This document shows, piece by piece, positions 7,934 through 56,824 of a stretch of 64,000 nucleotides of DNA; position 1 is the stretch's first letter; the number at the start of each line of letters is the position of its first letter. The translations under genes were made by a program, and so were the position numbers. Origin of the DNA: Escherichia coli phage KS_S14; the sequence record LC788706.1; one strand, written 5' to 3'. The notes beneath the pieces are model-generated. The model worked only from the letters and a program-made list of their open reading frames with translations. It was not told the origin of the DNA and ran no database searches.

Positions 7934-7944
7934 TTAATAACAAA

Positions 7945-7978
7945 CCCCAGCTATTGAATAGGTAGTCTGGGGTTTTTC
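7945..7978 (+). terminator. rho-independent terminator
   Basis: Stem ccccag...ctgggg followed by T5 run. Confidence 0.6.
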
Positions 7979-8054
7979 TGTATACAGGTAGATAATTTAT
8001 GTATAATAAAATTCATCCACATTAGGTTAATTTAAAAAACTTAATGGAGGTAAT

Positions 8055-8402
8055 ATGAGCCGTACTTATCGTAAACAATCTGGTGATCAGTGGTGGAAGT
8101 CTAAAGAACAATTCTCTCAAGAATATTCTTTCATCAAAGAAAATGGCTACTGGATTCGTGTTATTTATGCCAAATCTTGGGACGACATCAAAAAAGAAAT
8201 GAAGGAAGCAACCATTCGTAATGAGAAAAAGGATGGTTATAACTGGAATTCTGTTAGTAAGAATGTTAAGTGGCATTCTAATAAAATGGTTCGTCAAGGG
8301 AATCGTCAAGAACTCCACCGCGTGATGAAAGATCCAGAAAATTACGACTATAATCGCGATCATGACATGCGTAAGCGTGGATTATGGTGGTGCTACGACT
8401 AA
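8055..8402 (+). CDS. hypothetical protein
   Basis: 115 aa ORF with GGAGG RBS. Confidence 0.5.
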   Translation: MSRTYRKQSGDQWWKSKEQFSQEYSFIKENGYWIRVIYAKSWDDIKKEMKEATIRNEKKDGYNWNSVSKNVKWHSNKMVRQGNRQELHRVMKDPENYDYNRDHDMRKRGLWWCYD

Positions 8403-8419
8403 TTTCTGAAATAATTCAT

Positions 8420-8448
8420 TTGCTAAACCTCTCTTTTCTTGTTATAAT
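8420..8448 (+). promoter_or_regulatory. sigma70-type early promoter (TTGCTA-17-TATAAT)
   Basis: Consensus hexamers with downstream ATAAATTGATGGGAGAGG box. Confidence 0.6.
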
Positions 8449-8478
8449 ATATTTATAAATTGATGGGAGAGGTTTGAA

Positions 8479-8760
8479 ATGAAAACTCGTCTAGACTGTG
8501 CTATCCACGTTGTCGAGCATAGTGTTGTTGGAACCTGTATGTCTTACCATGAGGCAGGTCGCTTAATTAAAGAACGTGTGGCAGATGTATGTGGATTGAA
8601 GATTACTGCTGAGGAAGCTGATGATCTTTTAGGCCAAGCACTTGAGAAAACCGAAATATTCCTCTGTGATTCTTGTTCTTGGTGGTGTGAAGCTCACGAA
8701 CATTCCTTCAATGATTATGATGTATGCCGTGACTGTAATGAGGAAGATACTGATGAATAA
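8479..8760 (+). CDS. hypothetical acidic Cys-rich protein
   Basis: 93 aa ORF after promoter; CDSCSWWC...CRDC motifs. Confidence 0.5.
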   Translation: MKTRLDCAIHVVEHSVVGTCMSYHEAGRLIKERVADVCGLKITAEEADDLLGQALEKTEIFLCDSCSWWCEAHEHSFNDYDVCRDCNEEDTDE

Positions 8761-12757: not shown

Positions 12758-13357
12758 ATGACTAATAAAAAAGAAGAAAAGACTAACCTGTTTCACTCCA
12801 TTCGCCAATCTAATGAGTATACCTTTTTCTTTGATGAAGAACTCGGTCCGCCGGATGAATACCGTGATTTATCAATGGTACTTATGCAAGCAAATGAGGA
12901 CGACGAAATTAATCTGATGATTAATGGTCCAGGTGGTTATGTTGATACTGCTGCACAGTTATCTAACTTAATTGCTAATTGCCGTGGAACAGTTATAGGA
13001 CATCTGGTTGGTCCTAGTGCTTCTGCTTACTGCACAATTTTCCTATCCTGTCATGGATGGGTAGTACATCCACATGCTACGCTAATGGGACACACGTTCT
13101 CTGGCGGATTCTGTGAGAAAGGTCAAGAAATCAAGAAAGCCTATGAATCTTACAACAAGTTCGTAGAAGATATGATGCTAGATGTCTACTATCCGTTCTT
13201 CTCAATAGATGAAATAGACGAGATGGTAAAAGACAACAAAAATATCTATCTAGATAGCAAGGAAATTCATAAGCGTATTGAAATCTTGGCGAAATATAGA
13301 TCTGAGCAATATAATAAAATGCAGTTAACTCAATCTGAGAAGCACAACGAAGAGTAA
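12758..13357 (+). CDS. ClpP-like serine protease (S14 family)
   Basis: 199 aa; INGPGG, GPSASAY and GHTFSGG motifs resemble ClpP. Confidence 0.55.
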   Translation: MTNKKEEKTNLFHSIRQSNEYTFFFDEELGPPDEYRDLSMVLMQANEDDEINLMINGPGGYVDTAAQLSNLIANCRGTVIGHLVGPSASAYCTIFLSCHGWVVHPHATLMGHTFSGGFCEKGQEIKKAYESYNKFVEDMMLDVYYPFFSIDEIDEMVKDNKNIYLDSKEIHKRIEILAKYRSEQYNKMQLTQSEKHNEE

Positions 13358-39491: not shown

Positions 39492-39662
39492 ATAAATATA
39501 GGATGGGATACTACTCAGTTGGTATCCCATTCCTGTATTTTAAAATCCCCTTTACAAATTCGATACGATTATGTATACTATATTCATTGATCGGGAGAAC
39601 TTCTCCCATAATAGAACGTAAACAAGAAAAATTAATGCTCTACATGGGGTGTAGGAGATTCT

Positions 39663-42475: not shown

Positions 42476-43108
42476 ATGACACAAGCTGCTATTGACTATA
42501 ACAAGTTAAAATCAGCACCCGTTCATTTAGATGCTTATATTAAATCTATTGATAGCGAATCCAAAGAAGGTGTTGTAAAAATCCGTGGATTCGCTAATAC
42601 AATTAGTAAAGATCGCGCTGGTGATGTAATTCCTGCTTCTGCGTGGAAAACGTCTAATGCACTTACTAACTACATGAAAAACCCGATTATTCTTTTCGGA
42701 CACGATCATCGTCGTCCAATCGGTAAGTGTATTGATCTTAATCCTACTGAAATGGGTCTCGAAATCGAATGCGAGATCTATGAAAGTTCTGACCCGGCTA
42801 TCTTTTCACTAATTAAAAACGGTGTACTGAAAACTTTTAGTATCGGATTCCGCTGCCTAGATGCAGAGTGGGATGAAGCTACTGATATATTTATTATTAA
42901 AGATTTAGAACTATACGAAGTCTCGGTAGTTTCTGTACCTTGTAATCAGGACTCAACATTCAATCTCGCTAAGAGCATGAATGGTCATGATTATACTGAA
43001 TGGCGTAAATCTTTTACTGCAATAAGTTCTAAAGCTGTCCCAGCTCAAGAACGTAATCTTTCTGAACTAGAAAAACTTGCGATAGCTTTAGGCTACGTTA
43101 AAGAATAA
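42476..43108 (+). CDS. prohead protease
   Basis: 210 aa between decoration and capsid genes; FGHDH motif. Confidence 0.55.
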   Translation: MTQAAIDYNKLKSAPVHLDAYIKSIDSESKEGVVKIRGFANTISKDRAGDVIPASAWKTSNALTNYMKNPIILFGHDHRRPIGKCIDLNPTEMGLEIECEIYESSDPAIFSLIKNGVLKTFSIGFRCLDAEWDEATDIFIIKDLELYEVSVVSVPCNQDSTFNLAKSMNGHDYTEWRKSFTAISSKAVPAQERNLSELEKLAIALGYVKE

Positions 43109-43125
43109 CGGAGAATTATTTAAAA

Positions 43126-44502
43126 ATGACTATTGATATTAATAAGCTGAAAGAAGAACTTGGTCTGGGTGATCTGGCTAAATCTCTGGAAGGTCTGACC
43201 GCTGCTCAGAAAGCTGCCGAAGCTGAACGTATGCGCAAAGAGCAGGAAGAAAAAGAACTGGCTCGTATGAATGATCTGGTTTCTAAAGCAGTTGGTGAAG
43301 ATCGTCAGAAGCTAGAAGAAGCTCTGGAACTGGTTAAATCCCTGGATGAAAAATCTAAAAAGAGCGCAGAACTGTTTGCACAGACTGTAGAAAAACAGCA
43401 GGAAACTATTATTGGTCTTCAGGACGAAATCAAATCTCTACTGGCAGCTCGTGAAGGACGTTCCTTCGTCGGTGATAGCGTAGCTAAAGCACTGTATGGT
43501 ACTCAGGAAGCTTTCGAAGATGAAGTTGAAAAACTAGTTCTGCTATCTTATGTAATGGAAAAAGGCGTATTCGAAACTGAACATGGTCAGAATCACCTTA
43601 AAGCTGTAAACACCTCTTCTTCAGTTCAGGTTTCTAATGAAAACTATGAAACTATTTTCTCCCAGCGTATCATTCGTGATCTGCAGAAAGAGCTGGTAGT
43701 TGGTGCACTGTTCGAAGAATTGCCGATGTCTAGTAAGATTCTTACTATGCTAGTTGAACCAGATGCTGGTAAAGCTACTTGGGTTGCTGCTTCTACTTAT
43801 GGTACTGATGCAACTACTGGTGAAGAAGTTAAAGGTGCTCTGACTGAAATTCATTTCAGTACTTACAAATTAGCTGCTAAGTCCTTCATTACTGATGAAA
43901 CTGAAGAAGATGCAATCTTCTCTCTGCTGCCTCTGCTGCGTAAACGCCTGATTGAAGCACACGCTGTTTCTATCGAAGAAGCTTTCATGACTGGTGATGG
44001 TTCTGGTAAGCCGAAAGGTCTGCTGACCCTTGCTAGCGAAGATAGTGCTAAGGTTGTTACCGAGGCTAAAGCTGATGGTTCTGTATTAGTAACTGCTAAA
44101 ACTATTTCTAAACTGCGTCGTAAACTGGGCCGTCATGGTCTGAAACTTAGCAAACTAGTACTGATCGTATCTATGGATGCTTATTACGATCTGCTGGAAG
44201 ATGAAGAATGGCAGGATGTTGCACAGGTTGGTAACGATGCTGTTAAACTGCAAGGTCAGGTTGGTCGTATTTATGGTCTGCCAGTTGTAGTTTCTGAATA
44301 CTTCCCTGCTAAAGCTGCTTCCGCAGAATTCGCAGTTATCGTTTATAAAGATAACTTTGTAATGCCGCGTCAGCGTGCTGTTACTGTTGAACGTGAGCGC
44401 CAAGCTGGTAAACAGCGTGACGCGTACTACGTTACCCAGCGTGTTAACCTGCAACGTTACTTTAATAACGGCGTTGTATCCGGTACTTACGCTGCATCTT
44501 AA
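43126..44502 (+). CDS. major capsid protein precursor
   Basis: 458 aa; coiled-coil N-terminal scaffold-like domain; HK97-like position; highly expressed codon style. Confidence 0.7.
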   Translation: MTIDINKLKEELGLGDLAKSLEGLTAAQKAAEAERMRKEQEEKELARMNDLVSKAVGEDRQKLEEALELVKSLDEKSKKSAELFAQTVEKQQETIIGLQDEIKSLLAAREGRSFVGDSVAKALYGTQEAFEDEVEKLVLLSYVMEKGVFETEHGQNHLKAVNTSSSVQVSNENYETIFSQRIIRDLQKELVVGALFEELPMSSKILTMLVEPDAGKATWVAASTYGTDATTGEEVKGALTEIHFSTYKLAAKSFITDETEEDAIFSLLPLLRKRLIEAHAVSIEEAFMTGDGSGKPKGLLTLASEDSAKVVTEAKADGSVLVTAKTISKLRRKLGRHGLKLSKLVLIVSMDAYYDLLEDEEWQDVAQVGNDAVKLQGQVGRIYGLPVVVSEYFPAKAASAEFAVIVYKDNFVMPRQRAVTVERERQAGKQRDAYYVTQRVNLQRYFNNGVVSGTYAAS

Positions 44503-44523
44503 TACAGGCTTTTCAGCCGATAA

Positions 44524-44548
44524 GGAGAGCTTCGGCTCTCCTTTTTTA
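44524..44548 (+). terminator. rho-independent terminator after capsid gene
   Basis: Stem ggagagc-ttcg-gctctcc followed by T6. Confidence 0.7.
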
Positions 44549-44561
44549 TTGGGAAAAATAA
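44547..44561 (+). promoter_or_regulatory. conserved late-region motif TATTGGGAAAAATAAA abutting start codon
   Basis: One of three near-identical copies, each directly after a terminator. Confidence 0.3.
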
Positions 44562-45074
44562 ATGCAAATCATCACAGCCGAAGATTATAGATTATATGGT
44601 GGTTTAAAACGACCTGAATTAGAATCTGGTGTAGAAATGATGATTACTGCTGCCAATGCGCTGATTACGAGCCTTCTAGGCATGGATGATGCTGATGCGG
44701 TAGACCAGTTAATCAATACAAAACCTACACGTAGGAAATATTTTCTGAGCTCACCATCTGCTACCTCCGTAACTAAAGTGACGATTAACGATAAGGAGAT
44801 TGACCCAGAGCAGTATAAGCTATACTCTGATGGTATTATCCTTCTCAAATTTAATCCTCCAGAAGGTTATATGGATGTAGCATATACACAAGGTGGATTC
44901 AATCCAATACCTGAAGATCTCAAACTTGCAGCATGTATGTTAGTAGATCATTGGCACAAACAAGATTACCGCCAAGCTAAAACAATTGGTGGAGAAACAG
45001 TTACTTTTAATAATACTAAGTCTGGTATTCCAGAGCATATTCGTACTATTATTGAAGTTTACAGGAGAGTATAA
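44562..45074 (+). CDS. head completion or adaptor protein candidate
   Basis: 170 aa immediately downstream of capsid gene. Confidence 0.4.
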   Translation: MQIITAEDYRLYGGLKRPELESGVEMMITAANALITSLLGMDDADAVDQLINTKPTRRKYFLSSPSATSVTKVTINDKEIDPEQYKLYSDGIILLKFNPPEGYMDVAYTQGGFNPIPEDLKLAACMLVDHWHKQDYRQAKTIGGETVTFNNTKSGIPEHIRTIIEVYRRV

Positions 45075-45841
45075 TGTCTCTTTCTGATTTAGCTACACAA
45101 ATTATCAAGGAGCAATTAGATACTGCGGGACGTTCCGAGAATAATAAGAATACCGTTGTATATTCTGTTGAAACAGGACTGAAAGATCCTACTAGAGATG
45201 GTACTGTTGCTCAGGTATCTTTTAAATTCTCAAAACCTGTATCCCAAGACCTCCTTAATGTTAGGACCGCTTCTATTCTAAAAGCAGTTTCTTCTAGCTT
45301 AGATCTAACAGGAGACTTAGGTGCTTTAGAAAGTCTTATTCAAGCAACCTCTGGTAAAAAATCCTCTGTAGGTAAAAAACGTTCTACTGGTAGAGTTCAA
45401 GTAAACTTTGGAGACCCTAGAGACGTAGAAGATGGATATTCTGGTGCAGTAACAGGTGCTTCAGGACGTTTTGTATCTAATAGCAATATGAAGGTTATTC
45501 TGGAGTTGGTTGCTAAAGAATACTTAATAAAGGATATGAAAAAAGCAGGAGCTCCACTTAAATTTAGAACAGGTCGTTTTGCAAATTCTCTAAAAGTTAA
45601 AGATGTTATGCTTAGAGATACTGGAACTAGCAAAGGTGCTCCTGAATTAAATGTTACATATAATTATATGGTACGTCCATATTCAGTATTTAACCCCGCA
45701 GTGTCTACATATCGAAGATTATCATTACGACCATATCCAGGTGCTAGAAACCCCCAAAAATTAATTGGAGAGGCGATAGCTAAAGCTGCAAGAGACCTAA
45801 TTCACTCCAGATACAAAATTAAGGTTAATCAAGGAACCTAA
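45074..45841 (+). CDS. hypothetical structural protein
   Basis: 255 aa in head-tail joining region. Confidence 0.45.
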   Translation: MSLSDLATQIIKEQLDTAGRSENNKNTVVYSVETGLKDPTRDGTVAQVSFKFSKPVSQDLLNVRTASILKAVSSSLDLTGDLGALESLIQATSGKKSSVGKKRSTGRVQVNFGDPRDVEDGYSGAVTGASGRFVSNSNMKVILELVAKEYLIKDMKKAGAPLKFRTGRFANSLKVKDVMLRDTGTSKGAPELNVTYNYMVRPYSVFNPAVSTYRRLSLRPYPGARNPQKLIGEAIAKAARDLIHSRYKIKVNQGT

Positions 45842-45844
45842 TAA

Positions 45845-46330
45845 ATGGATCACAGAACAAGTATAGCACAAGCTCTGGTTGATCGAATAGCCAAACAAAT
45901 GGATGGCTCTCAACCAGATGAATATTTTAATAACTTGTATGGAAACGTCTCACGTCAAACTTATAAGTTTGAGGAGATACGAGAGTTTCCTTATGTTGCA
46001 GTTCATATCGGAACTGAAACTGGGCAATATCTTCCCTCAGGTCAACAGTGGATGTTTTTAGAACTTCCTATCCTGGTGTATGATAAAGAGAAAACAGACA
46101 TTCAAGAGCAACTTGAAAAACTCGTAGCGGATATAAAAACCGTTATTGACACAGGTGGAAATTTAGAATATACTGTTAGTAAACCTAATGGATCGACCTT
46201 CCCATGTGAGGCGACTGATATGAGCATTACATCAGTTAGTACAGATGAGGGTCTACTGGCCCCATATGGTTTAGCAGAAATAAATGTAACAGTGAGGTAT
46301 CAGCCTCCACGTAGGTCACTTCGCAGATAA
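45845..46330 (+). CDS. tail completion protein candidate
   Basis: 161 aa upstream of tail tube gene. Confidence 0.4.
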   Translation: MDHRTSIAQALVDRIAKQMDGSQPDEYFNNLYGNVSRQTYKFEEIREFPYVAVHIGTETGQYLPSGQQWMFLELPILVYDKEKTDIQEQLEKLVADIKTVIDTGGNLEYTVSKPNGSTFPCEATDMSITSVSTDEGLLAPYGLAEINVTVRYQPPRRSLRR

Positions 46331-46356
46331 GTTACAGATTAGGAGAAAATAATTAA

Positions 46357-47754
46357 ATGTCTTTACAACTATTACGTAATACTCGAATCTTCGTGTCTAC
46401 GGTTAAGACTGGTCACAACAAGACCAACACGCAAGAGATTCTAGTTCAGGATGATATTTCTTGGGGTCAGGACAGTAACTCAACAGATATTACTGTTAAC
46501 GAAGCTGGTCCGCGTCCTACTCGTGGTTCTAAACGATTTAACGATTCCTTAAACGCAGCTGAGTGGAGTTTTTCTACTTATATCCTGCCATATATCAATA
46601 AAGATGATCAGAAGCAAATCGTTCCTGACTATATGTTATGGCATGCACTTTCTAGTGGTAAAGCTATTAACTTAGGAGGTAATACAGGAGCACACAATAA
46701 CGAAGCTAACTTCATGGTTAACTTCAAAGATAACTCCTATCATGAGTTAGCAATGTTACATATTTATATTCTGACTGATAAAGCATGGAGTTATATCGAT
46801 TCCTGTCAGATTAACCAGGCAGAAGTTAACGTTGATATTGAGGATATTGGTCGTGTAACTTGGTCCGGTAATGGTAATCAGCTTATTCCTCTGGATGAGC
46901 AACCATTTGACCCAGATGAGTTAGGTATTGATGATGAAACTTATATGACTATCCAGGGTTCTTATATTAAGAACAAACTAACGATCTTGAAGATCAAGGA
47001 TATGGATACCAATAAGTCTTATGACATACCTATTACTGGTGGTACTTTCACTATTAATAACAACATCACGTACCTAACCCCGAATATTATGTCTCGTGTT
47101 AATATTCCGATCGGTTCATTTACTGGCGCATTTGAACTAACTGGTTCATTAACTGCTTATCTGAATGATAAATCTCTTGGTTCTATGGAGCTATACAAAG
47201 ATCTTATCAAGACTCTGAAGGTAGTTAACCGCTTCGAAATTGCTCTAGTACTTGGTGGTGAATACGATGAAGAACGTCCTGCGGCTATTCTGGTAGCTAA
47301 ACAAGCACACGTTAATATTCCTACTATTGAAACTGATGATGTACTTGGTACTTCAGTAGAGTTTAAAGCTATTCCATCTGATCTGGATGCTGGTGATGAA
47401 GGTTACTTAGGCTTCTCTAGTAAATATACCAAAACAACTATTAATAACTTGATTGTTAATGGTGATGGTGCTACTAATGCTGTAACCGCAATTACTGTTA
47501 AATCTGCTGGTGATGCTACTACAGTAAATAACTCGGCTACTCTTCAAATGAGTGTTGAAGTTACTCCTTCTTCCGCAAAGAATAAGGAAGTTACTTGGGC
47601 TATCACTGCCGGTGATGCAGCTACAATTGATCCAGAATCTGGCCTATTAACTGCGGACACCACTAAAACTGGTGAAGTAACTGTAGAAGCTACTGCTAAA
47701 GATGGTTCTGGAGTTAAAGGTACTAAACAGATTACTGTAACAGCAGGTGGCTAA
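46357..47754 (+). CDS. major tail tube protein with C-terminal Ig-like domain (pb6-like)
   Basis: 465 aa; C-terminal Big_2-like stretch; position before tape measure. Confidence 0.6.
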   Translation: MSLQLLRNTRIFVSTVKTGHNKTNTQEILVQDDISWGQDSNSTDITVNEAGPRPTRGSKRFNDSLNAAEWSFSTYILPYINKDDQKQIVPDYMLWHALSSGKAINLGGNTGAHNNEANFMVNFKDNSYHELAMLHIYILTDKAWSYIDSCQINQAEVNVDIEDIGRVTWSGNGNQLIPLDEQPFDPDELGIDDETYMTIQGSYIKNKLTILKIKDMDTNKSYDIPITGGTFTINNNITYLTPNIMSRVNIPIGSFTGAFELTGSLTAYLNDKSLGSMELYKDLIKTLKVVNRFEIALVLGGEYDEERPAAILVAKQAHVNIPTIETDDVLGTSVEFKAIPSDLDAGDEGYLGFSSKYTKTTINNLIVNGDGATNAVTAITVKSAGDATTVNNSATLQMSVEVTPSSAKNKEVTWAITAGDAATIDPESGLLTADTTKTGEVTVEATAKDGSGVKGTKQITVTAGG

Positions 47755-47758
47755 TTAA

Positions 47759-48658
47759 ATGTACTACTCTCTAATGAGAGAGTCAAAAGTTATAGTTGAG
47801 TATGATGGTAGGGCATTTCATTTTGATGCCCTATCAAACTATGATATACAGACTTCCTACGAGGAATTCAAGACTCTTCGTAGGACTGTTCATCGTAGAA
47901 CTAACTATGCAGACTCTATTATAAATGCTCAAACCCCTTCTTCTATCTCTCTAGCAGTAAATTTTAGTAATACTCTTACTGAAGCTAACTTCTTTGAATG
48001 GTTAGGTTTTGATAGAAAAGGTAATACTTTCTTACTCCCATTATATAGTAATAATATTGAACCTATTATGTTCAATATCTATATAGTAAACAAAGATAAT
48101 AACTGTGTATATTTTGAAAACTGTTATGTATCTACAGTAGATTTTTCTTTAGATAAGAATATACCAATTCTTAATATTGGTATTGAGTCTGGGAAATTCT
48201 CAGAAGTATCTACCTATAGAGAAGCAGCTTCTATTATACAGGGTGAAGTAATGTCTTACAGCCCAGTAATAGCTTCTACTAATGGCAGCATCTTACCCGG
48301 TCTTATCTCTGCTTCCTTATCTTTCCAACAGCAGTGCTCCTGGAGAGAGGATAAGAGTGTTTTTGATATAAATAAAATTTATAATAATAAAAGAGCCTAT
48401 GTAACTGAAATGAATGCTTCGGCAACCATTTCTCTATACTACTTAAAACGTTTTGCAGGAGATATGGTTTACAATATCGAACCGGAGACAGATGTACCTT
48501 TAAATATAAGAAATAATAATATTTCTATAGATTTTCCTTCAGCACGTATTACAAAACGCCTAGAGTTCTCAGATGTGTATAGAGTTGAGTGGGATGTTAT
48601 ACCTACTGCTTCTTCAGACCCAGTGAGAATAGATTTCTTTGGAGAAATTAAAAAATGA
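47759..48658 (+). CDS. hypothetical tail-associated protein
   Basis: 299 aa between tail tube and tape measure. Confidence 0.45.
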   Translation: MYYSLMRESKVIVEYDGRAFHFDALSNYDIQTSYEEFKTLRRTVHRRTNYADSIINAQTPSSISLAVNFSNTLTEANFFEWLGFDRKGNTFLLPLYSNNIEPIMFNIYIVNKDNNCVYFENCYVSTVDFSLDKNIPILNIGIESGKFSEVSTYREAASIIQGEVMSYSPVIASTNGSILPGLISASLSFQQQCSWREDKSVFDINKIYNNKRAYVTEMNASATISLYYLKRFAGDMVYNIEPETDVPLNIRNNNISIDFPSARITKRLEFSDVYRVEWDVIPTASSDPVRIDFFGEIKK

Positions 48659-49059
48659 TTAATTTAAAAGATATTACTCTTGATACTCGTACTATTACTC
48701 TTTCCTACCCAGGTATGCCGAATTTTAAACTAGAACTTAACTATATGTCTCGTGCTACCTCTAAACGTGTTATTTCTTCTGCTAAACGTGATGAATGGGT
48801 TAATGGTACGCTGATACAAGTACAGGATGATGATAAGTTTATTGAAGCCTTTGTTGATGCAGCTATTAAAGGCTGGACTGGCTTAACTGTTGGTGACGTT
48901 GAAAAACTGATGCTGATTGAAACTGATGCTGATCCTGAAACTGAAGTTCCTTTTAGCCGCGACAATGCTGTAATGCTTATGCAGAACTCTGCTGCGTTTG
49001 ATTCTTGGATCAACCAGACAGTGTTCCACTTAGACACTTTTCGTAGCCCAAAAGCGTAA
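48655..49059 (+). CDS. hypothetical tail-associated protein
   Basis: 134 aa. Confidence 0.45.
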   Translation: MINLKDITLDTRTITLSYPGMPNFKLELNYMSRATSKRVISSAKRDEWVNGTLIQVQDDDKFIEAFVDAAIKGWTGLTVGDVEKLMLIETDADPETEVPFSRDNAVMLMQNSAAFDSWINQTVFHLDTFRSPKA

Positions 49060-49120
49060 AGAACTCCTAGATGCTGTTGCTGATTTTGCAGATAAGTGTA
49101 TTAAAAGCTCAGCATCTAAA

Positions 49121-49489
49121 ATGACTAAACAACAATATTTAATACTTTGTGAATCAATGGGTATAGAGCCTGATCCTAAGGCCATACCTGTTGAACTTGA
49201 AGACTTTCCACCTATTGTAGCTACTAGTATGAATATTTATAATAGTCTAATTGACTGTTTCATACCTGGTGACTTCCCTATCTTTATAGGTAAAGACAAA
49301 GCTGCTCTAGGTGTTTTATTTGATATTTATGGGATTACTGATCCTATAGAAAAAGAATTTGTTCTACACATTATCAATATATTTGATGCTAAAGCTGTAG
49401 ATGCTGCACGTAAACGTGCTGAGAAGCATAAACCGCAAAACGGAAGGATTCCTAACGTTAAGCCACATGCTAGATCTCGTGCACGGTAA
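49121..49489 (+). CDS. tail assembly chaperone candidate
   Basis: 122 aa immediately upstream of tape measure. Confidence 0.4.
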   Translation: MTKQQYLILCESMGIEPDPKAIPVELEDFPPIVATSMNIYNSLIDCFIPGDFPIFIGKDKAALGVLFDIYGITDPIEKEFVLHIINIFDAKAVDAARKRAEKHKPQNGRIPNVKPHARSRAR

Positions 49490-49524
49490 AAGTTTCCTCC
49501 AATGGGCGTTCCACGATGAGGCTT

Positions 49525-49557
49525 GGCTCTGGGTGATTTGCCCAGAGCCTTTTTTTA
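49525..49557 (+). terminator. rho-independent terminator
   Basis: Stem ggctctggg...cccagagcc followed by T7. Confidence 0.7.
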
Positions 49558-49572
49558 TTGGGAAAAATAAAA
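49556..49572 (+). promoter_or_regulatory. conserved late-region motif TATTGGGAAAAATAAAA
   Basis: Second copy, directly before tape measure start. Confidence 0.3.
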
Positions 49573-49573
49573 C

Positions 49574-52500
49574 ATGACTGATAAGCTAATACGAGAATTA
49601 CTAATAGACGTTAAACAGAAGGGGGCAACTCGTACTGCAAAGTCTATTGAAAACGTATCTGATGCGTTGGAAAATGCTGCTGCTGCTTCCGAACTGACAA
49701 ATGAGCAGTTAGGTAAAATGCCCAAAACTCTTTATTCCATTGAGAGGGCAGCAGACAGAGCAGCAAAAAGTCTTACTAAAATGCAAGCTAGTAGGGGTAT
49801 GGCTGGTATCACCAAATCTATTAATGATATTGGTGATAAACTAGATTACCTAGCTATCCAACTTATTGAAGTAACAGATAAACTAGAAATTGGATTCGAT
49901 GGAGTTTCTAGATCTGTTAAAACAATGGGCAATGATGTTGCAGCTGCAACAGAGAAAGTTCAAGATAGGTTATACGATACTAATAGAGTTTTAGGCGGTA
50001 CAACCAGAGGTTTTAATGATACTGCTGGTGCCGCTGGTAGAGCGTCTAGAGCCATTGGTAATACTTCTGGTTCAGCACGTGGTGCAACTCGTGATTTTGC
50101 AGCAATGGCTAAGATAGGTGGTAGTTTACCTATTATGTACGCAGCTCTTGCTTCCAACATCTTCGTTTTGCAATCAGCATTTGAACAACTTAAACTAGGT
50201 GATCAGCTAAATCGTTTAGAAAAATTTGGTGTTATAGTAGGTACTCAGACAGGTACTCCTGTTCAGACCCTTGCTAGATCACTACAAGAAGCTGCTGGAT
50301 ATGCTATTTCTTTTGAGGAAGCAATGAGACAGGCATCTTCAGCATCAGCTTATGGGTTTGATGCCGAACAACTTAATAAATTTGGTTTAGTAGCTCGTCG
50401 TGCGGCTGCTGTTCTTGGCGTTGATATGACTGATGCACTTAACCGTGTAATTAAGGGCGTATCTAAACAAGAAATCGAACTTCTGGATGAACTTGGTGTC
50501 ACCATTCGTCTTAATGACGCATACGCTGATTATGTTAAACAGTTAAATGCTGCAAACACAGGTATAACATATAATGTTAATAGTCTTACCACTTTCCAGA
50601 AGCAACAAGCATACGCTAATGCGGTAATTGCTGAATCTACTAAGCGTTTTGGCTACCTAGATGAAGTACTACGTGCAACTCCATGGGAGCAATTTGCTGC
50701 TAATGCAGATGCTGCACTAAGAAAAATACAACAAGCTGCTGCTAAGTATTTAGGGCCAGTAATTGATGCTATCAACACAGTATTTTATACATCTCAGGCT
50801 TCTATATCTGCTGAGGCAGCTAGGGCCCAAGAAAAAACTAATAGACAGATAGACCCTACCAACGTTGGTGCTGTTGCTTTAAGTTTAGCTGCATCTGAAG
50901 AAGGCTATAATAAAGCTCTAGATATGTATAAGGAATCTCTTGATAAGCGTAATAAGCTAAAATCTGAGTTCGATAAACGAATGGAACAAGCAGATTTCTA
51001 TACAAAACTAGCTATACGTCAAGTTGGTGAAGGTATTCCTATTGGTCTTGCAGCAGCAGGTGCCTCGGAGGCCAATAAGCAATTTGTAGCAGAAACTGCA
51101 GCTATGGGTCTACAAGTAACTAGACTTGGTAAGGAAGTAGAGGATTCTACAGAGAACCTCAATGCTTGGAAATCAGCGTATCAAGCTGCCGGGGCTGCTG
51201 CTGCAAAGGCTAGTCCAGAGTTTCAGAAGCAAATTAATCTACAGAGAGATACTACTGATCCTGGTGCTGTATATGATTTTAACTCTACTGTATTAAAAGG
51301 ACTAACTGAGCAGCAGAAAGCATACAATCAGACTAAGAAAACTGCTAGTGACTTAGCTAATGATATACAGAACGTTGCTCAGAATACAGATACTGCTGCT
51401 AAAACTAGTGCTACTTTAGCAGATGCTATAAAAAACATAGAATCTCTATCTCTAGGTACTGGTAAGAGTGCTGATGAATACGTTAAAAATCTTAACCTAG
51501 GCTATAATACTCTGTCTGAAATGAAAACTGCGTCTCAGGCCTTATCTGAGTACGTTAAACTAACTGGTAATGAGACTAAGAACCAGTTAGCAGTTCAACA
51601 GAAGATAGCTGACGTATACAACCAAACTAAAGATAAAGAAAAAGCACAGGAAGCTGGTAGGCGTTTAGAACTCCAACAGTTAGAAGAGCAAGAAGCTGCT
51701 TTACGCCGTGTACTTCAAACTAATCAGGGAAATAAAGCTGTTGAGAAAGAAATTGAAAAAATTCAGCTGGAGAAACTTAAACTTACTAATCAGGGTATGG
51801 AGGCTCAGAAGAAGGTTAAGGATTATACAGATAAAATCCTGGGTGTAGATCGTGAGATAGCTCTCTTAAATAACCGTACTATGACAGATACTCAGTATCG
51901 TCTAGCACAGTTAAATCTTGAATTGACCATTGAAAAGGAAAAGTACGAATGGTATACAAAACAAGCTGATAAACAGAAAGAGGCTGAACAGTCTAGACGT
52001 GCTCAAGCCCAAATTGAACGTGAAATCTGGAAATTCCGCCAAGATCAGATTGCTTCAATGGCTGCTGGTAGAGAGGAAGAACAGCAAAGACAATTTACTG
52101 CTAAACCACTAATGGGAAATGCGGAGCGCTTACAGGAACAGCTAAAATTATATGAAGACTTAAAGCAGAAAACATTAGGTAATGCTGCGGCACAAGCGGA
52201 GTATAATAAAAAGATAGCTGAAACTAGGGCACAACTAGCAGGTTTAAGGGCACAGAGAAATGCGGAGATGCAAGCTTCTGTTGGATCTTCTTTAGGTGCT
52301 GTGTATACTCCTACAACTGGACTATCTGGAGAAGATAAAGATTTTGCTGATATGGGAAATAGAATGGCTTCTTATGATCAGGCAATTTCTAAACTATCTG
52401 AGTTAAATTCCGAAGCAACTGCTGTAGCTCAAAGCATGGGTAATTTAACCAATGCTATGATTCAGTTCTCTATGGGGTCTTTAGACACTACTTCCACGAT

Positions 52501-53254
52501 CGCAGCAGGTATGCAGACTGTAGCCTCTATGATTCAATATAGTACTAGTCAACAGGTTAGTGCGATTGATCAGGCTATTGCAGCAGAGCAGAAACGAGAT
52601 GGTAAATCAGAAGCATCTAAAGCTAAGTTGAAGAAGTTGGAAGCTGAAAAGCTGAAGATTCAACAAGACGCAGCTAAGAAGCAGATTATCATCCAAACTG
52701 CAGTAGCTGTAATGCAGGCAGCCACCGCTGTTCCATATCCGTTCTCTATTCCACTAATGGTTGCGGCAGGTTTGGCGGGTGCCTTAGCTCTTGCTCAAGC
52801 ATCTTCTGCTTCTAGTATGTCAAGTATTGCTGATTCGGGAGCTGATACAACTAGTTACTTAACCTTAGGAGAGCGTCAGAAGAATATAGATGTGTCTATG
52901 TCTGCTAATGCAGGTGAACTATCTTATATTCGTGGAGATAAAGGCATAGGCGGTGCTAACTCTTTCGTTCCTCGCGCTGAGGGTGGTAATATGTACCCTG
53001 GGGTTAGCTATCAAATGGGTGAGCATGGTACAGAAGTAGTTACCCCTATGGTTCCTATGAAAGCTACACCTAATGATGAGCTAAAAACCTCATCTAACTC
53101 AACTTCAGGAAGACCTATCATCTTGAATATTAGTGCTATGGATGCTGCAAGTTTCAGAGAGTTTGCTTCTAGTAATAGTAGTGCTCTAAGAGACGCAGTA
53201 GAATTAGCTCTGAATGAGAACGGTGCTAGTTTGAAAACATTAGGAAATTCTTAA
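49574..53254 (+). CDS. tail tape measure protein (pb2-like)
   Basis: 1226 aa; Ala/Gln-rich coiled coil, C-terminal hydrophobic segment; size close to recalled T5 pb2. Confidence 0.75.
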   Translation: MTDKLIRELLIDVKQKGATRTAKSIENVSDALENAAAASELTNEQLGKMPKTLYSIERAADRAAKSLTKMQASRGMAGITKSINDIGDKLDYLAIQLIEVTDKLEIGFDGVSRSVKTMGNDVAAATEKVQDRLYDTNRVLGGTTRGFNDTAGAAGRASRAIGNTSGSARGATRDFAAMAKIGGSLPIMYAALASNIFVLQSAFEQLKLGDQLNRLEKFGVIVGTQTGTPVQTLARSLQEAAGYAISFEEAMRQASSASAYGFDAEQLNKFGLVARRAAAVLGVDMTDALNRVIKGVSKQEIELLDELGVTIRLNDAYADYVKQLNAANTGITYNVNSLTTFQKQQAYANAVIAESTKRFGYLDEVLRATPWEQFAANADAALRKIQQAAAKYLGPVIDAINTVFYTSQASISAEAARAQEKTNRQIDPTNVGAVALSLAASEEGYNKALDMYKESLDKRNKLKSEFDKRMEQADFYTKLAIRQVGEGIPIGLAAAGASEANKQFVAETAAMGLQVTRLGKEVEDSTENLNAWKSAYQAAGAAAAKASPEFQKQINLQRDTTDPGAVYDFNSTVLKGLTEQQKAYNQTKKTASDLANDIQNVAQNTDTAAKTSATLADAIKNIESLSLGTGKSADEYVKNLNLGYNTLSEMKTASQALSEYVKLTGNETKNQLAVQQKIADVYNQTKDKEKAQEAGRRLELQQLEEQEAALRRVLQTNQGNKAVEKEIEKIQLEKLKLTNQGMEAQKKVKDYTDKILGVDREIALLNNRTMTDTQYRLAQLNLELTIEKEKYEWYTKQADKQKEAEQSRRAQAQIEREIWKFRQDQIASMAAGREEEQQRQFTAKPLMGNAERLQEQLKLYEDLKQKTLGNAAAQAEYNKKIAETRAQLAGLRAQRNAEMQASVGSSLGAVYTPTTGLSGEDKDFADMGNRMASYDQAISKLSELNSEATAVAQSMGNLTNAMIQFSMGSLDTTSTIAAGMQTVASMIQYSTSQQVSAIDQAIAAEQKRDGKSEASKAKLKKLEAEKLKIQQDAAKKQIIIQTAVAVMQAATAVPYPFSIPLMVAAGLAGALALAQASSASSMSSIADSGADTTSYLTLGERQKNIDVSMSANAGELSYIRGDKGIGGANSFVPRAEGGNMYPGVSYQMGEHGTEVVTPMVPMKATPNDELKTSSNSTSGRPIILNISAMDAASFREFASSNSSALRDAVELALNENGASLKTLGNS

Positions 53255-53261
53255 AACTGGA

Positions 53262-53285
53262 GGAGGACTTTGAGTCCTCCTTTTC
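53262..53285 (+). terminator. rho-independent terminator after tape measure
   Basis: Stem ggaggac-tttga-gtcctcc followed by TTTT. Confidence 0.65.
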
Positions 53286-53286
53286 T

Positions 53287-53303
53287 TTATGGAAAAATAA
53301 AAA
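53287..53303 (+). promoter_or_regulatory. conserved late-region motif TTATGGAAAAATAAAAA
   Basis: Third copy, again directly after a terminator. Confidence 0.3.
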
Positions 53304-53307
53304 TTTC

Positions 53308-53336
53308 TTGATAAAATTTTCTAATACTATTATAAT
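53308..53336 (+). promoter_or_regulatory. sigma70-type promoter (TTGATA-17-TATAAT) inside late tail cluster
   Basis: Consensus hexamers, then GAGGAG RBS and ATG at 53364. Confidence 0.45.
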
Positions 53337-53363
53337 ATTGTTATTAAAGAGGAGAAATTAACT

Positions 53364-53978
53364 ATGAGATTACCAGACCCATACACGAATCCAGAACTTT
53401 CAGGCTTAGGATTCGAAAGTGTTAACCTGATTGATAATGACCCAGTAATTCGTGATGAGTTACCAAATGGTAAAGTTAACGAAGTTAAGGTATCTGCTCA
53501 ATACTGGGGTATAAATATTTCTTATCCAGAATTATTTCCAGATGAATATAGTGTTCTAGATGCATTTATTCTAGAATACAAAAGGACTGGTGGTTATATA
53601 GATGTTATATTACCACAATACGAAGCTTTTAGAGTTAGAGGTAATACTAGCCTAGTAAATATACCTGCTGGACAGAAGGGTTCTAATATAACTATGGATA
53701 CAAAAGGACTTCTCACAGGTATTCCAAAACCAGGGGATCTATTTAAGCTATCTAACCATCCAAAAGTATATAAAATAACATCATTCAATAAATCAGGCAA
53801 TACGTGGTCTATAAACTTATACCCTGATTTATTTATAACTACTACTGGGGCTGAGAAACCAGTGTTTAACGGAATACTATTTAGAACAAAACTCATGAAT
53901 GGTGATGCTTTCGGATCTACATTAAATAATAACGGAACATATTCCGGCATCTCATTAAATTTACGGGAAAGTTTATGA
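53364..53978 (+). CDS. distal tail protein (pb9-like)
   Basis: 204 aa immediately after tape measure; length matches recalled T5 pb9. Confidence 0.55.
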   Translation: MRLPDPYTNPELSGLGFESVNLIDNDPVIRDELPNGKVNEVKVSAQYWGINISYPELFPDEYSVLDAFILEYKRTGGYIDVILPQYEAFRVRGNTSLVNIPAGQKGSNITMDTKGLLTGIPKPGDLFKLSNHPKVYKITSFNKSGNTWSINLYPDLFITTTGAEKPVFNGILFRTKLMNGDAFGSTLNNNGTYSGISLNLRESL

Positions 53979-56824
53979 AGAAAATACTAGATAGTGCTAG
54001 AAACTACTTAAAAAATAATAGCAGAATAAAAACTGCTAGTCTAATTTCCCTAGAATTACCTGGCTCTACTGGTACTAGTACTGCTTTTATTTATTTAACT
54101 GATTATTTTAGAGATGTACTATATAATGGTATTTTGTACCAGGCCGGTAAGGTTAAGTCCATTAGCACACATAAACAAAATAGAGATTTATCTATTGGCA
54201 GTCTATCTTTTACTATTACGGGTACAGCGCAGGATGAAGTACTGAAATTAGTGCAGAATGGTGTGTCCTTTTTAGATAGAATAGTAACAATCCACCAAGC
54301 AATTATTACAGAGGATGGTTCTATTTTACCTGTAGACCCAGACACAAATGGCCCTTTATTATACTTTAGAGGGAGAATTACCGGTGGGGGTATTAAGGAC
54401 AACATTAGTACTTCTGGGGTTGGAACCTCCACAATTACTTGGAATTGTTCTAACCAATTCTATGACTTTGATAGGGTTAACGGTAGATTTACTGATGATG
54501 CTTCTCATAGAGGGCTTGAGGTTGTAGCAGGGCAATTAGTTCCATCTAACGGGGCTAAAAGACTTGAGTACCAAGAAGATTATGGGTTCTTTCATGCTAA
54601 TAAAAGTATCTCTATTTTAGCAAAATATCAGGTACAGGAAGAGAGATACAAGCTAAAGTCTAAGAAAAAGCTATTTGGCCTATCTAGAAGCTATAGTCTT
54701 AAAAAGTATTATGAGACTGTTACTAAAGAAGTAGATATAGATTTTAACCTTGCTGCTAAGTATATACCAGTAGTTTATGGTGTACAGAAAATACCAGGAA
54801 TACCTATTTTTGCGGATACGGAACTACACAATCCTAATATAGTTTATGTAGTATACGCCTTTGCTGAAGGGGAGATAGACGGTTTTCTTGACTTTTCCTT
54901 CGGGGATAACCCTATGATTTGTATGGACTCTAATGATAGCTCTGCTAGAACCTGTTTCGGTGTTAAAAAAGTAGCAGGAGACACCATGCAAAGAATAGCA
55001 TCAGGAATATCTTCTAGTAGTCCTTCTGTGCATGGTCAGGAATATAAGTATAATGATGGTAATGGTGATATAAGGATTTGGACTTATCATGGAAAAGCTG
55101 ATCAAACGGCTTCTGAAGTATTAGTAGACATAGCGAAAGAACGTGGGTTCTACCTTCAGAATATGAATGGCAATGGACCGGAGTACTGGGATGCTAGGTA
55201 TAAACTACTAGATACTGCATACGCAGTGGTGCGCTTCACTATTAATGAAAATAGGACTGAGATTCCTGAAGTTAGTGCTGAAATTCAAGGTAAAAAAGTA
55301 AAAGTCTATCATTCTGATGGTAGAGTAACTGCTAATAGTACTAGTTTAAATGGTATTTGGCAAACACTTGACTACTTAACCTCCGATAGATACGGTGCTA
55401 ATATTACCATTGATCAGTTCCCTCTTCAGCAATTAATACAGGAAGCAGCTATTTTAGATATTATAGATGAATCCTATCAGGTATCTTGGCAGCCATATTG
55501 GAGATACGTTGGGTGGACTGATCCACTAGCAGAAAATAGACAAATAGTACAAATGAATACTATTCTGGATACATCTGAATCAGTATTTAAAAATGTGCAA
55601 GGTTTATTAGAGTCCTACGGTGGGGCTATTAACAACTTATCTGGCCAGTACAGGATTACTGTAGAAAAATACTCTAATACTCCATTAGAGATTAATTTTC
55701 TAGATACTTACGGTGATTTGGAGCTATCAGATACTACTGGTAGAAATAAATTCAACTCAGTTCAAGCATCTATCGTAGATCCAGCCCTTAGCTGGAAAAC
55801 TAATTCCATTACATTCTATAACTCCAAGTATAAGGAACAGGACAAGAACCTAGACAAAAAATTACAATTATCTTTTGCAAATATAACTAACTACTATACT
55901 GCTAGAAGTTTTGCAGACAGAGAACTTAAGAAATCTAGGTATTCTAGAACCCTCTCATTTTCTTTACCATATCAATTCATTGGTATTGAGCCTAATGATG
56001 CTATTGCATTTACATACGACCGTTACGGATGGGATAAGAAGTACTTTTTAGTAGATGAAGTCGAAAACTCTAGGGAAGGAAAGATAAATGTTACTCTACA
56101 GGAGTATGGAAAAGATGTATTCATCAACTCTGATCAAGTAGATAATAGTGGTAATGATATACCAGATATTAGTAACAACGTTCTTCCTCCTAGAGATTTT
56201 AAGTATACTCCTACACCCGGTGGCTTAGTTGGTTCTATAGGTAAAAATGGTGAGTTATCCTGGCTTCCGAGTCTAACCAATAATGTAGTTTATTACTCTA
56301 TTGTGCACTCAGGCCATGCCGAACCTTACATAGTACAACAGTTAGAGACCAATCCTAACGAACGTATGATCCAAGAAATAATTGGGGAACCAGCAGGTCT
56401 GGCTATATTTGAGATAAGAGCAGTAGATATTAATGGTAGAAGAAGTTCCCCGGTGACTCTGTCTATAGAACTTAACTCTGCTAAAAACCTTAGTGTAGTA
56501 TCTAATTTTAGGGTAACTAATACTGCTTCTGGAGATGTAACTGAGTTTGTTGGCCCAGATGTAAAACTAGCTTGGGATAGAATACCTGAAGAAGATATAA
56601 TAGAGAGTATATTTTATACACTTGAAATACACGATTCGCAAAATAGGATGTTAAGAAGTGTACGTATTGAAAATCAGTATACTTATGACTATTTATTAAC
56701 ATATAATAAGGCAGACTTTGCTCTCCAGAACAGCGGTGCTCTAGGTATAAATAGAAAATTGTATTTTCGTATTAGGGCTGAAGGGGATGATGGAGAACAG
56801 TCTGTGGAGTGGGCATCCATTTAA
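53975..56824 (+). CDS. baseplate hub / tail tip protein (pb3-like)
   Basis: 949 aa; position after distal tail protein; length matches recalled T5 pb3. Confidence 0.6.
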   Translation: MKKILDSARNYLKNNSRIKTASLISLELPGSTGTSTAFIYLTDYFRDVLYNGILYQAGKVKSISTHKQNRDLSIGSLSFTITGTAQDEVLKLVQNGVSFLDRIVTIHQAIITEDGSILPVDPDTNGPLLYFRGRITGGGIKDNISTSGVGTSTITWNCSNQFYDFDRVNGRFTDDASHRGLEVVAGQLVPSNGAKRLEYQEDYGFFHANKSISILAKYQVQEERYKLKSKKKLFGLSRSYSLKKYYETVTKEVDIDFNLAAKYIPVVYGVQKIPGIPIFADTELHNPNIVYVVYAFAEGEIDGFLDFSFGDNPMICMDSNDSSARTCFGVKKVAGDTMQRIASGISSSSPSVHGQEYKYNDGNGDIRIWTYHGKADQTASEVLVDIAKERGFYLQNMNGNGPEYWDARYKLLDTAYAVVRFTINENRTEIPEVSAEIQGKKVKVYHSDGRVTANSTSLNGIWQTLDYLTSDRYGANITIDQFPLQQLIQEAAILDIIDESYQVSWQPYWRYVGWTDPLAENRQIVQMNTILDTSESVFKNVQGLLESYGGAINNLSGQYRITVEKYSNTPLEINFLDTYGDLELSDTTGRNKFNSVQASIVDPALSWKTNSITFYNSKYKEQDKNLDKKLQLSFANITNYYTARSFADRELKKSRYSRTLSFSLPYQFIGIEPNDAIAFTYDRYGWDKKYFLVDEVENSREGKINVTLQEYGKDVFINSDQVDNSGNDIPDISNNVLPPRDFKYTPTPGGLVGSIGKNGELSWLPSLTNNVVYYSIVHSGHAEPYIVQQLETNPNERMIQEIIGEPAGLAIFEIRAVDINGRRSSPVTLSIELNSAKNLSVVSNFRVTNTASGDVTEFVGPDVKLAWDRIPEEDIIESIFYTLEIHDSQNRMLRSVRIENQYTYDYLLTYNKADFALQNSGALGINRKLYFRIRAEGDDGEQSVEWASI

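Follow-up and report, generated by a model that had tools for sequence, protein, structure and literature searches.

The DNA analysed here is a 64,000-nucleotide stretch of Escherichia coli phage KS_S14 (LC788706.1; referred to below as the window), a T5-like phage (Demerecviridae) with ~96% identity to Escherichia phage OSYSP. The window spans the whole late cluster. Three junctions in this cluster are considered: site 1, between the major capsid gene and the head-completion gene; site 2, between a tail-assembly-chaperone ORF and the tape-measure gene pb2; and site 3, between the tape-measure gene and genes for the distal tail and baseplate. Their features are collected in Table 1.

Table 1. 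Positions of the features found at the three late-cluster junctions
Feature	Position	Strand	Remarks
Site 1 terminator hairpin	44522..44543	+	GGAGAGC-TTCG-GCTCTCC plus flanking A/T pairs; -16.0 kcal/mol; after major capsid gene 43126-44502
Site 1 U-tract	44542..44550	+	TTTTTTATT, read in sequence; final TATT is motif bases 1-4
Site 1 initiation region	44551..44561	+	GGGA 44551-44554, A-rich spacer AAAATAA 44555-44561, then ATG 44562
Head-completion (adaptor) gene	44562..45074	+	170 aa; begins on last base of motif copy 1
Site 2 terminator hairpin	49525..49549	+	-19.1 kcal/mol; after tail-assembly-chaperone ORF 49121-49489
Site 2 U-tract	49550..49559	+	TTTTTTTATT; last four bases are motif bases 1-4
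Site 2 initiation region	49560..49573	+	GGGA and spacer AAAATAAAAC, then ATG 49574 of tape-measure gene pb2
Site 3 terminator	53259..53290	+	After tape-measure gene; hairpin 53259-53283 and T-run TTTTCTTTAT (53281-53290), whose first three Ts are also counted within the hairpin; -12.9 kcal/mol
Site 3 A/T-rich block	53291..53307	+	Core GGAAAAATAAA and AATTTC directly before -35 hexamer (UP-element position); position read from sequence
Sigma-70-type promoter	53308..53336	+	TTGATA-17-TATAAT, 11/12 match; distal-tail and baseplate genes
Shine-Dalgarno sequence AGGAG	53350-53354	+	Downstream of site 3 promoter; ATG 53364

Motif copies and the terminators before them

A predicted intrinsic terminator is present at each of the three sites, with a hairpin of 9 to 11 pairs followed by a T-run (TTTTTTATT, TTTTTTTATT and TTTTCTTTAT, respectively). 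A preliminary description of this DNA had placed three near-identical copies of a motif at 44547, 49556 and 53287, directly after strong intrinsic terminators and in two cases abutting start codons. The position behind a hairpin and T-run was borne out for all three copies, as was the contact with start codons: copy 1 shares its final A with ATG 44562, and copy 2 stops 2 nt before ATG 49574. Near-identity was found for two copies only. The 16-mer TATTGGGAAAAATAAA occurs exactly at 44547-44562 and 49556-49571, with the identity between sites 1 and 2 reaching 20 nt (TTTTTATTGGGAAAAATAAA); the third copy (TTTATGGAAAAATAAA, 53286-53301) starts at 53286 and matches the 16-mer at only 13 of 16 bases. 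Exact at all three sites is an 11-mer core, GGAAAAATAAA.

No further copy of this core could be found on either strand of the window, and in 100 kb of OSYSP it was found three times only; it does not precede any of the remaining late transcription units. At up to 3 mismatches the 16-mer gave 8 matches against 2.5 expected, a number that none of 100 shuffles reached. For the core at up to 1 mismatch, 5 matches were obtained in the window against 4.25 expected, with no enrichment elsewhere. A scan of IMG/VR with the exact motif returned, among the matches listed, mostly unrelated A/T-rich contigs expected by chance, together with T5-like genomes in which two copies lie ~5 kb apart. Rfam gave no match on 43000-54500 at E-values up to 1. 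Duplication of a terminator cassette was considered and rejected: the hairpin sequences show no relationship among the three sites, and similarity is confined to the tails.

All homologues of site 1 fold at -16 to -27 kcal/mol and continue with a U-tract, a G-rich element and ATG. The hairpin sequence is unchanged in the T5-like phages, Sugarland, PSTCR5 and lineages L165 and L170, and has one more G-C pair in My1; other, equally strong hairpins occupy the position in Vibrio and metagenomic lineages, the distant ones of which MAFFT was unable to align. For site 2, compensatory double changes supported 8 of the 11 pairs in the consensus fold of 12 lineages, and the T-run numbered 6 or 7 in close relatives. 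At site 3 a terminator was present in every lineage whose retrieved sequence extends to that junction, and the T5 record AY587007 marks a rho-independent terminator there.

Sites 1 and 2: two separable halves

The layout of sites 1 and 2 is kept across relatives: in each of 13 lineages, the most distant with a capsid at 44% identity, a hairpin is followed by T5-8, a Shine-Dalgarno-like element, a mostly A/T-rich spacer of 5 to 10 nt and ATG. The GGGA position is homologous to canonical Shine-Dalgarno sequences in these relatives. Other lineages have GGGT (Sugarland), GGAG, GAGG, AGAGG, AGGAGG or AAGGAG there at site 1 and GAGG, GGAG, GGAGG or AAGGA at site 2; GGGAG was also among the variants of the 13-lineage comparison. 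In the Sugarland record, independent annotators labelled the homologous GGAGAGCTTCGGCTCTCCTTTTTTATT (ending ...TTTTTTATT) as the terminator at site 1, and GGGT at site 1 and GGA at site 2 as ribosome-binding sites. Among T5-like variants GGG changes to GG or TAGG, with GGA always retained, and the lengths of T-run and spacer differ by 1 to 3 nt, one locus having 7 additional Ts.

T5 itself carries at site 2 a homing-endonuclease-like ORF whose insertion point falls exactly between TTTTTTATT and GGGAAAAATAAA. After this insertion the terminator retains TATT, and pb2 uses a different site, AGGAAAACATTAGATG. The two halves of the motif are separable.

For translation, the distance from GGGA to ATG is 7 nt at site 1 and 10 nt at site 2. 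A purine-rich element 5 to 10 nt from the start is thus present at both, contrary to the earlier statement that no Shine-Dalgarno sequence precedes these genes, but that statement was half right, for the element is weak: its duplex with the 3' end of 16S rRNA (anti-Shine-Dalgarno) amounts to -4.2 kcal/mol at either site, against -6 to -11.6 kcal/mol for most other late genes in the window. The opening energy was 5.1 kcal/mol at site 1, among the lowest of 20 late genes, and 8.8 kcal/mol at site 2, approximately the median of the 20 and not especially accessible. Of the proposed unusual translation-initiation signal, what stands is that the 3' two-thirds of the motif serve two genes as initiation region. 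There is nothing unusual in this region, a weak Shine-Dalgarno-like GGGA with an A-rich spacer, and relatives have canonical GGAG, GAGG and AGGAGG in its place.

The head-completion protein corresponds over its full length to the 'Head completion protein' chain in PDB entries 8hqo, 9ilp and 9imv, and its N-terminus aligns from Met1 on across 7 genera. The first tape-measure codons are conserved as M-T/S/A-D/N-K/R-L/M-I. These alignments point to ATG 44562 and ATG 49574 as the true N-termini. An ORF at 49401-49577, which crosses the site 2 terminator and motif and ends with ATGA on the tape-measure start, was rejected because single-nucleotide insertions and deletions distinguish close relatives in T-run, spacer and upstream box alike.

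Two RNA structures were also tried. A mini-hairpin of U-tract and A-rich spacer, with GGGA in its loop, was rejected: it folds weakly (-1.5 to -2.3 kcal/mol; z-scores -0.08 and -0.94), and over 24 tails the cognate pairings did not outperform chimeric ones (permutation p = 0.21) and equalled controls with shuffled spacers. Upstream of the site 2 terminator lies a conserved non-coding box resembling an anti-Shine-Dalgarno sequence, UUUCCUCC (49494-49501). Its long-range pairing with the tape-measure initiation region is feasible (~-5.9 kcal/mol versus -3.9 kcal/mol for shuffled boxes) but unsupported: cognate boxes pair no better than non-cognate ones (permutation p = 0.84), and the consensus fold backs the terminator helix only.

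The promoter at site 3

At site 3 the core precedes the -35 hexamer at a distance of 7 to 17 bp, and no gene start follows the core. The promoter is the counterpart of 'putative late promoter T5P39' in AY587007, and a sigma-70-type -35/-10 pair is retained at this junction in most lineages examined. The A/T-rich block is invariant in 28 of 28 T5-like loci, even those with flanks at only 82% identity, and the A-run preceding the -35 hexamer is retained in My1, Sugarland, L165 and L170. Similar A-rich blocks precede the -35 hexamer of most other intergenic sigma-70-like promoters in the window. Judged from its position and A-richness, the core most likely acts as a UP-like element here. In PMC7472727, transcription of T5 late genes is ascribed to sigma-70 holoenzyme acting at sigma-70 promoters with UP elements, and the legend to Fig. 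S5 of that report indicates that UP elements are drawn for early promoters as well as late ones. No T5 transcriptome or 5'-end map was found in the literature searched.

Interpretation of the three sites

The motif is probably a composite of ordinary signals standing back to back, and not a new signal: the end of a terminator and a weak ribosome site at sites 1 and 2, and the A-rich part upstream of a promoter at site 3. The signals would adjoin because terminator and following gene are packed tightly together in this phage. At sites 1 and 2, TTTTTT(T)ATT would be the U-tract of an intrinsic terminator, attenuating transcription beyond the capsid gene, which is very abundant, and beyond the chaperone gene. 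On transcripts that read through, the next 11 to 14 nt would form the ribosome-binding site of the downstream gene, with GGGA as a weak Shine-Dalgarno-like element, followed by the A-rich spacer and ATG. The head-completion and tape-measure proteins are low-copy components of T5 virions, and terminator and weak initiation together may keep expression of their genes low. At site 3, the conserved sigma-70 promoter would restart transcription for the baseplate genes, with the core as a presumptive UP-like element upstream. Counting against this composite are the letter-perfect 20-mer at sites 1 and 2 and the exact 11-mer at site 3, where there is no start codon; shared constraint alone predicts neither. 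The average accessibility of the site 2 initiation region and a 44-nt identity with phage PSTCR5 at site 1 also tell against it. The identical tails of sites 1 and 2 may go back to shared constraint, gene conversion or common descent.

The site 3 copy can be accommodated if the 12 nt that follow the U-tract (GGGAAAAATAAA) serve as a terminator-distal element; no other single function would account for all three sites. In that case the G behind the T-run would be a pause signal, and the easily melted A/T-rich duplex downstream would raise or tune termination, possibly for a T5-modified RNA polymerase. The efficiency of intrinsic termination does depend on downstream sequence too, and the motif is strictly tied to terminators in the late cluster. 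We nevertheless regard such an element as improbable: the strong terminators at 7973, 10523, 13389, 15895, 39534 and 63069 are without the motif, no G follows the T-run at site 3 elsewhere (e.g. My1, L031 and L174), the T5 site 2 terminator has TTTTTTATT only and then unrelated sequence, and the positions vary in relatives as Shine-Dalgarno sequences and spacers do.

Similarly improbable is a shared RNA operator, whereby UUGGGAAAAAUAAA, or the identical tail UUAUUGGGAAAAAUAAA, on read-through late mRNA would allow one trans-acting factor to co-regulate the post-terminator genes. Going by the bases on offer, candidate binders may include a T4 RegA-type phage repressor, host Hfq (U-tract and AAN repeats) or CsrA (GGA); to our knowledge, no trans-acting factor of this kind has been described. 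Besides the letter-identity of the tails at sites 1 and 2 in one genome and the invariant GGA of T5-like variants, this reading would be favoured by the likeness of the two tails within My1 (ATTTGGAG and ATTTGAGG) and within KIT04 (TATGGAGAA at both sites), and by Providencia phage PSTCR5 (capsid 56% identical), in which terminator and ribosome site of site 1 are identical over 44 nt. The 44-nt identity hints at constraint or exchange of a kind that a generic weak ribosome site would not call for. The proteins of PSTCR5 have diverged to 26-56% identity, with the tail 100% conserved. Against an operator, relatives carry plain Shine-Dalgarno sequences and no conserved local RNA structure presents the motif; moreover, transcription from the site 3 promoter is predicted to start downstream of the motif copy there, which would therefore appear on read-through RNA only. 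If true, an operator would match the translation of two low-copy genes, for head completion and the tape measure, to the read-through of their terminators, and would explain both the letter identity within a genome and the complete conservation in the diverged Providencia phage.

The proposal of a late promoter or re-initiation element recognised by phage-modified RNA polymerase found no support. Since the motif runs up to the start codon at sites 1 and 2, a transcript begun there could not encode the full protein. No sigma-70 -35/-10 pair with at least 9 of 12 matches was found in 44540-44640 or 49550-49640, the best hexamers, picked by eye, having 3 to 4 matches of 6. There are three copies only, all after terminators, and site 3 has a promoter of its own. 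The T4-type late box TATAAATA was not enriched in the window (14 matches versus 10.1 expected). A phage-specific late promoter is thus not supported. A promoter element at all three sites, with the A-rich core as UP-like or late-promoter sequence and weak -35/-10 hexamers inside the first downstream codons, is highly unlikely: AY587007 does put 'putative late promoter T5P40' over site 1, and the same core stands ahead of a good promoter at site 3, but besides the points above Shine-Dalgarno sequences take the place of the core in other genera, and T5P40 was paired with an ORF137 start 78 nt too far downstream, the N-terminus being conserved from ATG 44562 and the 170-aa form being that of the solved structures.

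Read as ordinary signals back to back, the motif allows three late-operon junctions of T5-like phages to be parsed, two as terminator followed by weak ribosome site and one as terminator followed by promoter, which matters little beyond annotation. The old T5 annotation of site 1, with 'putative late promoter T5P40' and a shortened ORF137, is corrected. The layout also offers a possible way for T5-like phages to adjust the ratios of their virion proteins: attenuation after the capsid gene might be followed by a possible boost at a conserved promoter-like site inside a gene upstream of the tail-tube gene, then by a second attenuation before the tape-measure gene and a restart for the baseplate genes.

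Of the known systems, T4 late promoters (TATAAATA, gp55/gp33) bear only a superficial likeness, in that a short A/T-rich motif recurs in a late cluster; the position relative to start codons is incompatible, the motif is absent from other late units, and we know of no gp55/gp33-type factor for T5. Sites 1 and 2 resemble A/U-rich, S1-dependent initiation regions in having a U-rich stretch 5' of a weak Shine-Dalgarno sequence, an A-rich spacer and little structure; since relatives use canonical Shine-Dalgarno sequences, a weak variant and not a separate mechanism is indicated here. The sequence GGAAAAATAAAAATTTC, standing immediately before TTGATA-17-TATAAT at site 3, is similar to the UP elements of rrnB P1 and phage T5 promoters, the match to the UP consensus being judged by eye. 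Sites 1 and 2 are also like attenuating intercistronic intrinsic terminators joined to the ribosome-binding site of the next gene, located behind a highly expressed gene (capsid) and ahead of low-copy genes, with a G+C-rich hairpin, 8 to 10 mostly-T bases, a Shine-Dalgarno-like element and ATG within ~20 nt. They differ from the generic junction in the weakness of the Shine-Dalgarno sequence (GGGA) and in the 20-nt tail that is identical at two sites, which is not required generically. The finding is an ordinary one.

Recurrence of the motif at three late terminators

The late structural genes of KS_S14 lie in a single cluster on the + strand, in which the motif and neighboring features are placed as listed below. 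Between 44000 and 50000 the window shares 96% identity with Escherichia phage OSYSP; of the 550 phage records that match this region, nearly all come from T5-like Salmonella, Escherichia, and Klebsiella phages.

Features of the late gene cluster and candidate signals (window coordinates)
Feature	Position	Strand	Detail
Late structural cluster	~35.9 kb to 61 kb	+	
Terminase, portal, protease genes	in late cluster	+	
Terminator-promoter pair	39510-39580		strong hairpin ending ~39533, then TTTACA-17-TATACT at 39551
Major capsid gene	43126-44502	+	
Small hairpin	44506-44517	+	GGCTTTTCAGCC
Site 1 motif	44547	+	hairpin GGAGAGC-TTCG-GCTCTCC, TTTTTTATT, GGGA, AAAATAA, ATG
Head-completion gene	44562-45074	+	
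Tail genes	between head-completion and chaperone ORFs	+	
Candidate internal promoter	46146-46174	+	TTGACA-17-TATACT, 11/12
Tail-assembly-chaperone ORFs	48655-49059 and 49121-49489	+	different frames
Conserved non-coding box	49490-49524	+	AAGTTTCCTCCAATGGGCGTTCCACGATGAGGCTTG
Site 2 motif	49556	+	hairpin GGCTCTGGG...CCCAGAGCC, TTTTTTTATT, GGGA, AAAATAAAAC, ATG
Tape-measure gene pb2	49574-53254	+	
Site 3 motif copy	53286	+	
Mini-ORF	53288-53299	+	ATG GAA AAA TAA
Site 3 promoter	53308-53336	+	TTGATA-17-TATAAT, 11/12
Distal tail protein gene	from 53364	+	then baseplate and fibre genes
Bidirectional terminator	63043/63069		

The 16-nt motif, TATTGGGAAAAATAAA, is exact at sites 1 and 2, where identity extends over 20 nt. 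The site 3 copy matches it at 13 of 16 bases, so that of the three near-identical copies in the preliminary description two are exact, and only the 11-nt core, GGAAAAATAAA, is common to all three; this core occurs nowhere else in the window. When up to three mismatches were allowed, eight matches were observed in the window versus 2.5 expected, a count reached in 0 of 100 shuffles. As had been stated, a strong intrinsic terminator (hairpin and T-run) directly precedes every copy. The 100 kb of the 110.9-kb OSYSP genome that were scanned contain three copies of the core, one at each of the corresponding junctions. Because the core is confined to these junctions in both phages, each time after a terminator, the recurrence is real and terminator-tied, and is not a genome-wide signal.

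Terminator and ribosome-binding site at sites 1 and 2

Both sites were read base by base, and from the resulting order TATT, the first four bases of the motif, belongs to the U-tract. The following GGGA lies 7 nt (site 1) or 10 nt (site 2) from the start codon. A Shine-Dalgarno sequence had been considered missing here; GGGA is present, with a pairing energy to the 16S rRNA 3' end of −4.2 kcal/mol, although most late genes pair more strongly (−6 to −11.6 kcal/mol). Opening the initiation region costs 5.1 kcal/mol at site 1, one of the lowest values for 20 late genes, and 8.8 kcal/mol at site 2, about average. The start codons of the head-completion and tape-measure genes are right: the head-completion alignment begins at Met1 across seven genera, chains in PDB 8hqo, 9ilp, and 9imv comprise the full 170-aa sequence, and the first tape-measure codons are kept across genera.

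The junctions were compared in ~30 T5-like genomes, Sugarland, My1, Providencia phage PSTCR5, several Vibrio phage groups, and metagenomic relatives down to 44% capsid identity. Wherever the retrieved sequence of a lineage extends to a junction, a terminator is present there, and the layout at sites 1 and 2 is hairpin, T5-8, G-rich element, a mostly A/T-rich spacer of 5 to 10 nt, and ATG. The position of GGGA is occupied by GGGT or GGA (Sugarland), GGAG or GAGG (My1), GGAG (KIT04), AGGAGG (70E37-2), AAGGAG (VspSw_1), and, at further relatives' loci, AGAGG (L165), GAGG or AAGGA (L031), GGAGG (L174), and GGGAG (L177). Compensatory double changes occur at 8 of 11 pairs of the site 2 hairpin. The homologous bases in the Sugarland record are annotated as a terminator (ending TTTTTTATT) followed by a ribosome-binding site (GGGT, GGA).

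Among T5-like phages GGA is constant even where GG or TAGG stands in place of GGG; T-run and spacer lengths differ by 1 to 3 nt, apart from a single locus that has 7 additional Ts. In T5 itself (AY587007, L161 locus 7860-8670) a homing-endonuclease-like ORF of ~265 aa is inserted exactly after TTTTTTATT, corresponding to 49559/49560, and pb2 downstream of it has a different ribosome site, AGGAAAACATTAGATG. The motif halves are therefore separable: the first belongs to the terminator, the second to the gene downstream. A putative homing endonuclease also lies in the tape-measure junction region of IrisVonRoten.

In PSTCR5 (L038/L173, locus ~13262-13310) the site 1 terminator and ribosome site are identical to those of T5-likes over 44 nt; its proteins are far diverged (capsid 56% identical, adaptor N terminus only 26%). 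This identity points to very strong constraint or exchange. The capsid stop codon is directly followed by a small hairpin, ahead of the site 1 terminator; My1 (GGCTAATAGCC), PSTCR5 (GGCAATATGCC), and Sugarland also have a hairpin here, with a different sequence.

Site 3 promoter and other conserved signals

No start codon directly follows the motif at site 3; the translation-initiation signal suggested earlier is limited to sites 1 and 2, where GGGA and a spacer precede ATG, and is of an ordinary rather than unusual kind. At site 3 the core plus AATTTC instead abuts the upstream end of a promoter corresponding to "putative late promoter T5P39" of AY587007, with a strong Shine-Dalgarno sequence, AGGAG, before the distal tail start codon. 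Most of the lineages examined have a sigma-70-type −35/−10 pair at this junction, and the enterobacterial genera retain the A-run before −35. Of the window's other intergenic sigma-70-like promoters, most have similar A-rich blocks and several likewise come after terminators. Sigma-70 holoenzyme is the reported polymerase for T5 late genes, and the late promoter alignment in the same source is drawn with −35, −10, and UP elements (PMC7472727). On these grounds, and from position and composition only, we read the site 3 copy as a UP-like part of an ordinary promoter. The mini-ORF within it has no Shine-Dalgarno sequence and is probably meaningless.

The tail-terminator-protein gene contains a candidate conserved internal late promoter, ~180 nt upstream of the tail-tube gene (46357), that would re-establish transcription beyond the capsid terminator. 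Its two hexamers lie in codons, yet 9 lineages, Vibrio phages among them, retain both (one Vibrio lineage has TATAAT). In every lineage the chaperone ORFs are separated by a 60-90-nt "gap", an arrangement that resembles a G/GT-type programmed frameshift. The non-coding stretch separating the chaperone stop codon from the site 2 terminator contains a pyrimidine box, present in 13 of 13 lineages as TTTCCTCC or something close to it (e.g. TTTCTCC, GTCCTC), and GGGCRTTCCA(CGA), which is conserved from T5-likes to Vibrio phages. Neither a covarying helix nor an Rfam match was found in this stretch, and a coding role is excluded by one-nucleotide indels.

Proposed explanation and its alternatives

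The terminators would attenuate transcription after the capsid and chaperone genes, and on the read-through mRNA the head-completion and tape-measure proteins, both low-copy, would be translated from weak ribosome sites; past the tape-measure gene, transcription would end and restart from the promoter. Structures, positions, and homologies are observed directly, and the quantitative effect on expression we infer.

Four observations are not accounted for in this way: the letter-identical tails of sites 1 and 2, the exact 11-mer at site 3, the 44-nt junction identity in PSTCR5, and the conserved box before the site 2 terminator. On their account a small probability remains that a shared trans-acting factor (Hfq, CsrA, or RegA-like) binds UUAUUGGGAAAAAUAAAUG as an operator on read-through mRNA, or that the nucleotides after the U-tract have a terminator-distal role.

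The late promoter or re-initiation element of the preliminary description is not supported for sites 1 and 2: no sigma-70 −35/−10 pair scoring at least 9 of 12 follows the motif, RNA initiated there would miss the start codon, and the reported sigma-70 transcription of T5 late genes also speaks against it. In AY587007, "putative late promoter T5P40" (101590-101679, window ~44530-44620) spans the site 1 terminator and motif; this annotation is probably an artefact, as it depends on an ORF137 start wrongly placed 78 nt beyond the conserved ATG. T4-type late boxes were not enriched, known RNA families gave no match, an overlapping reading frame was excluded by indels, and both a U-tract/spacer mini-hairpin and pairing of an upstream anti-Shine-Dalgarno-like box with the tape-measure ribosome site were rejected or unsupported.

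The motif is a real observation, and one explained by known kinds of signal: the end of a terminator U-tract joined to a weak ribosome-binding site at sites 1 and 2, and an A-rich block upstream of a promoter at site 3.
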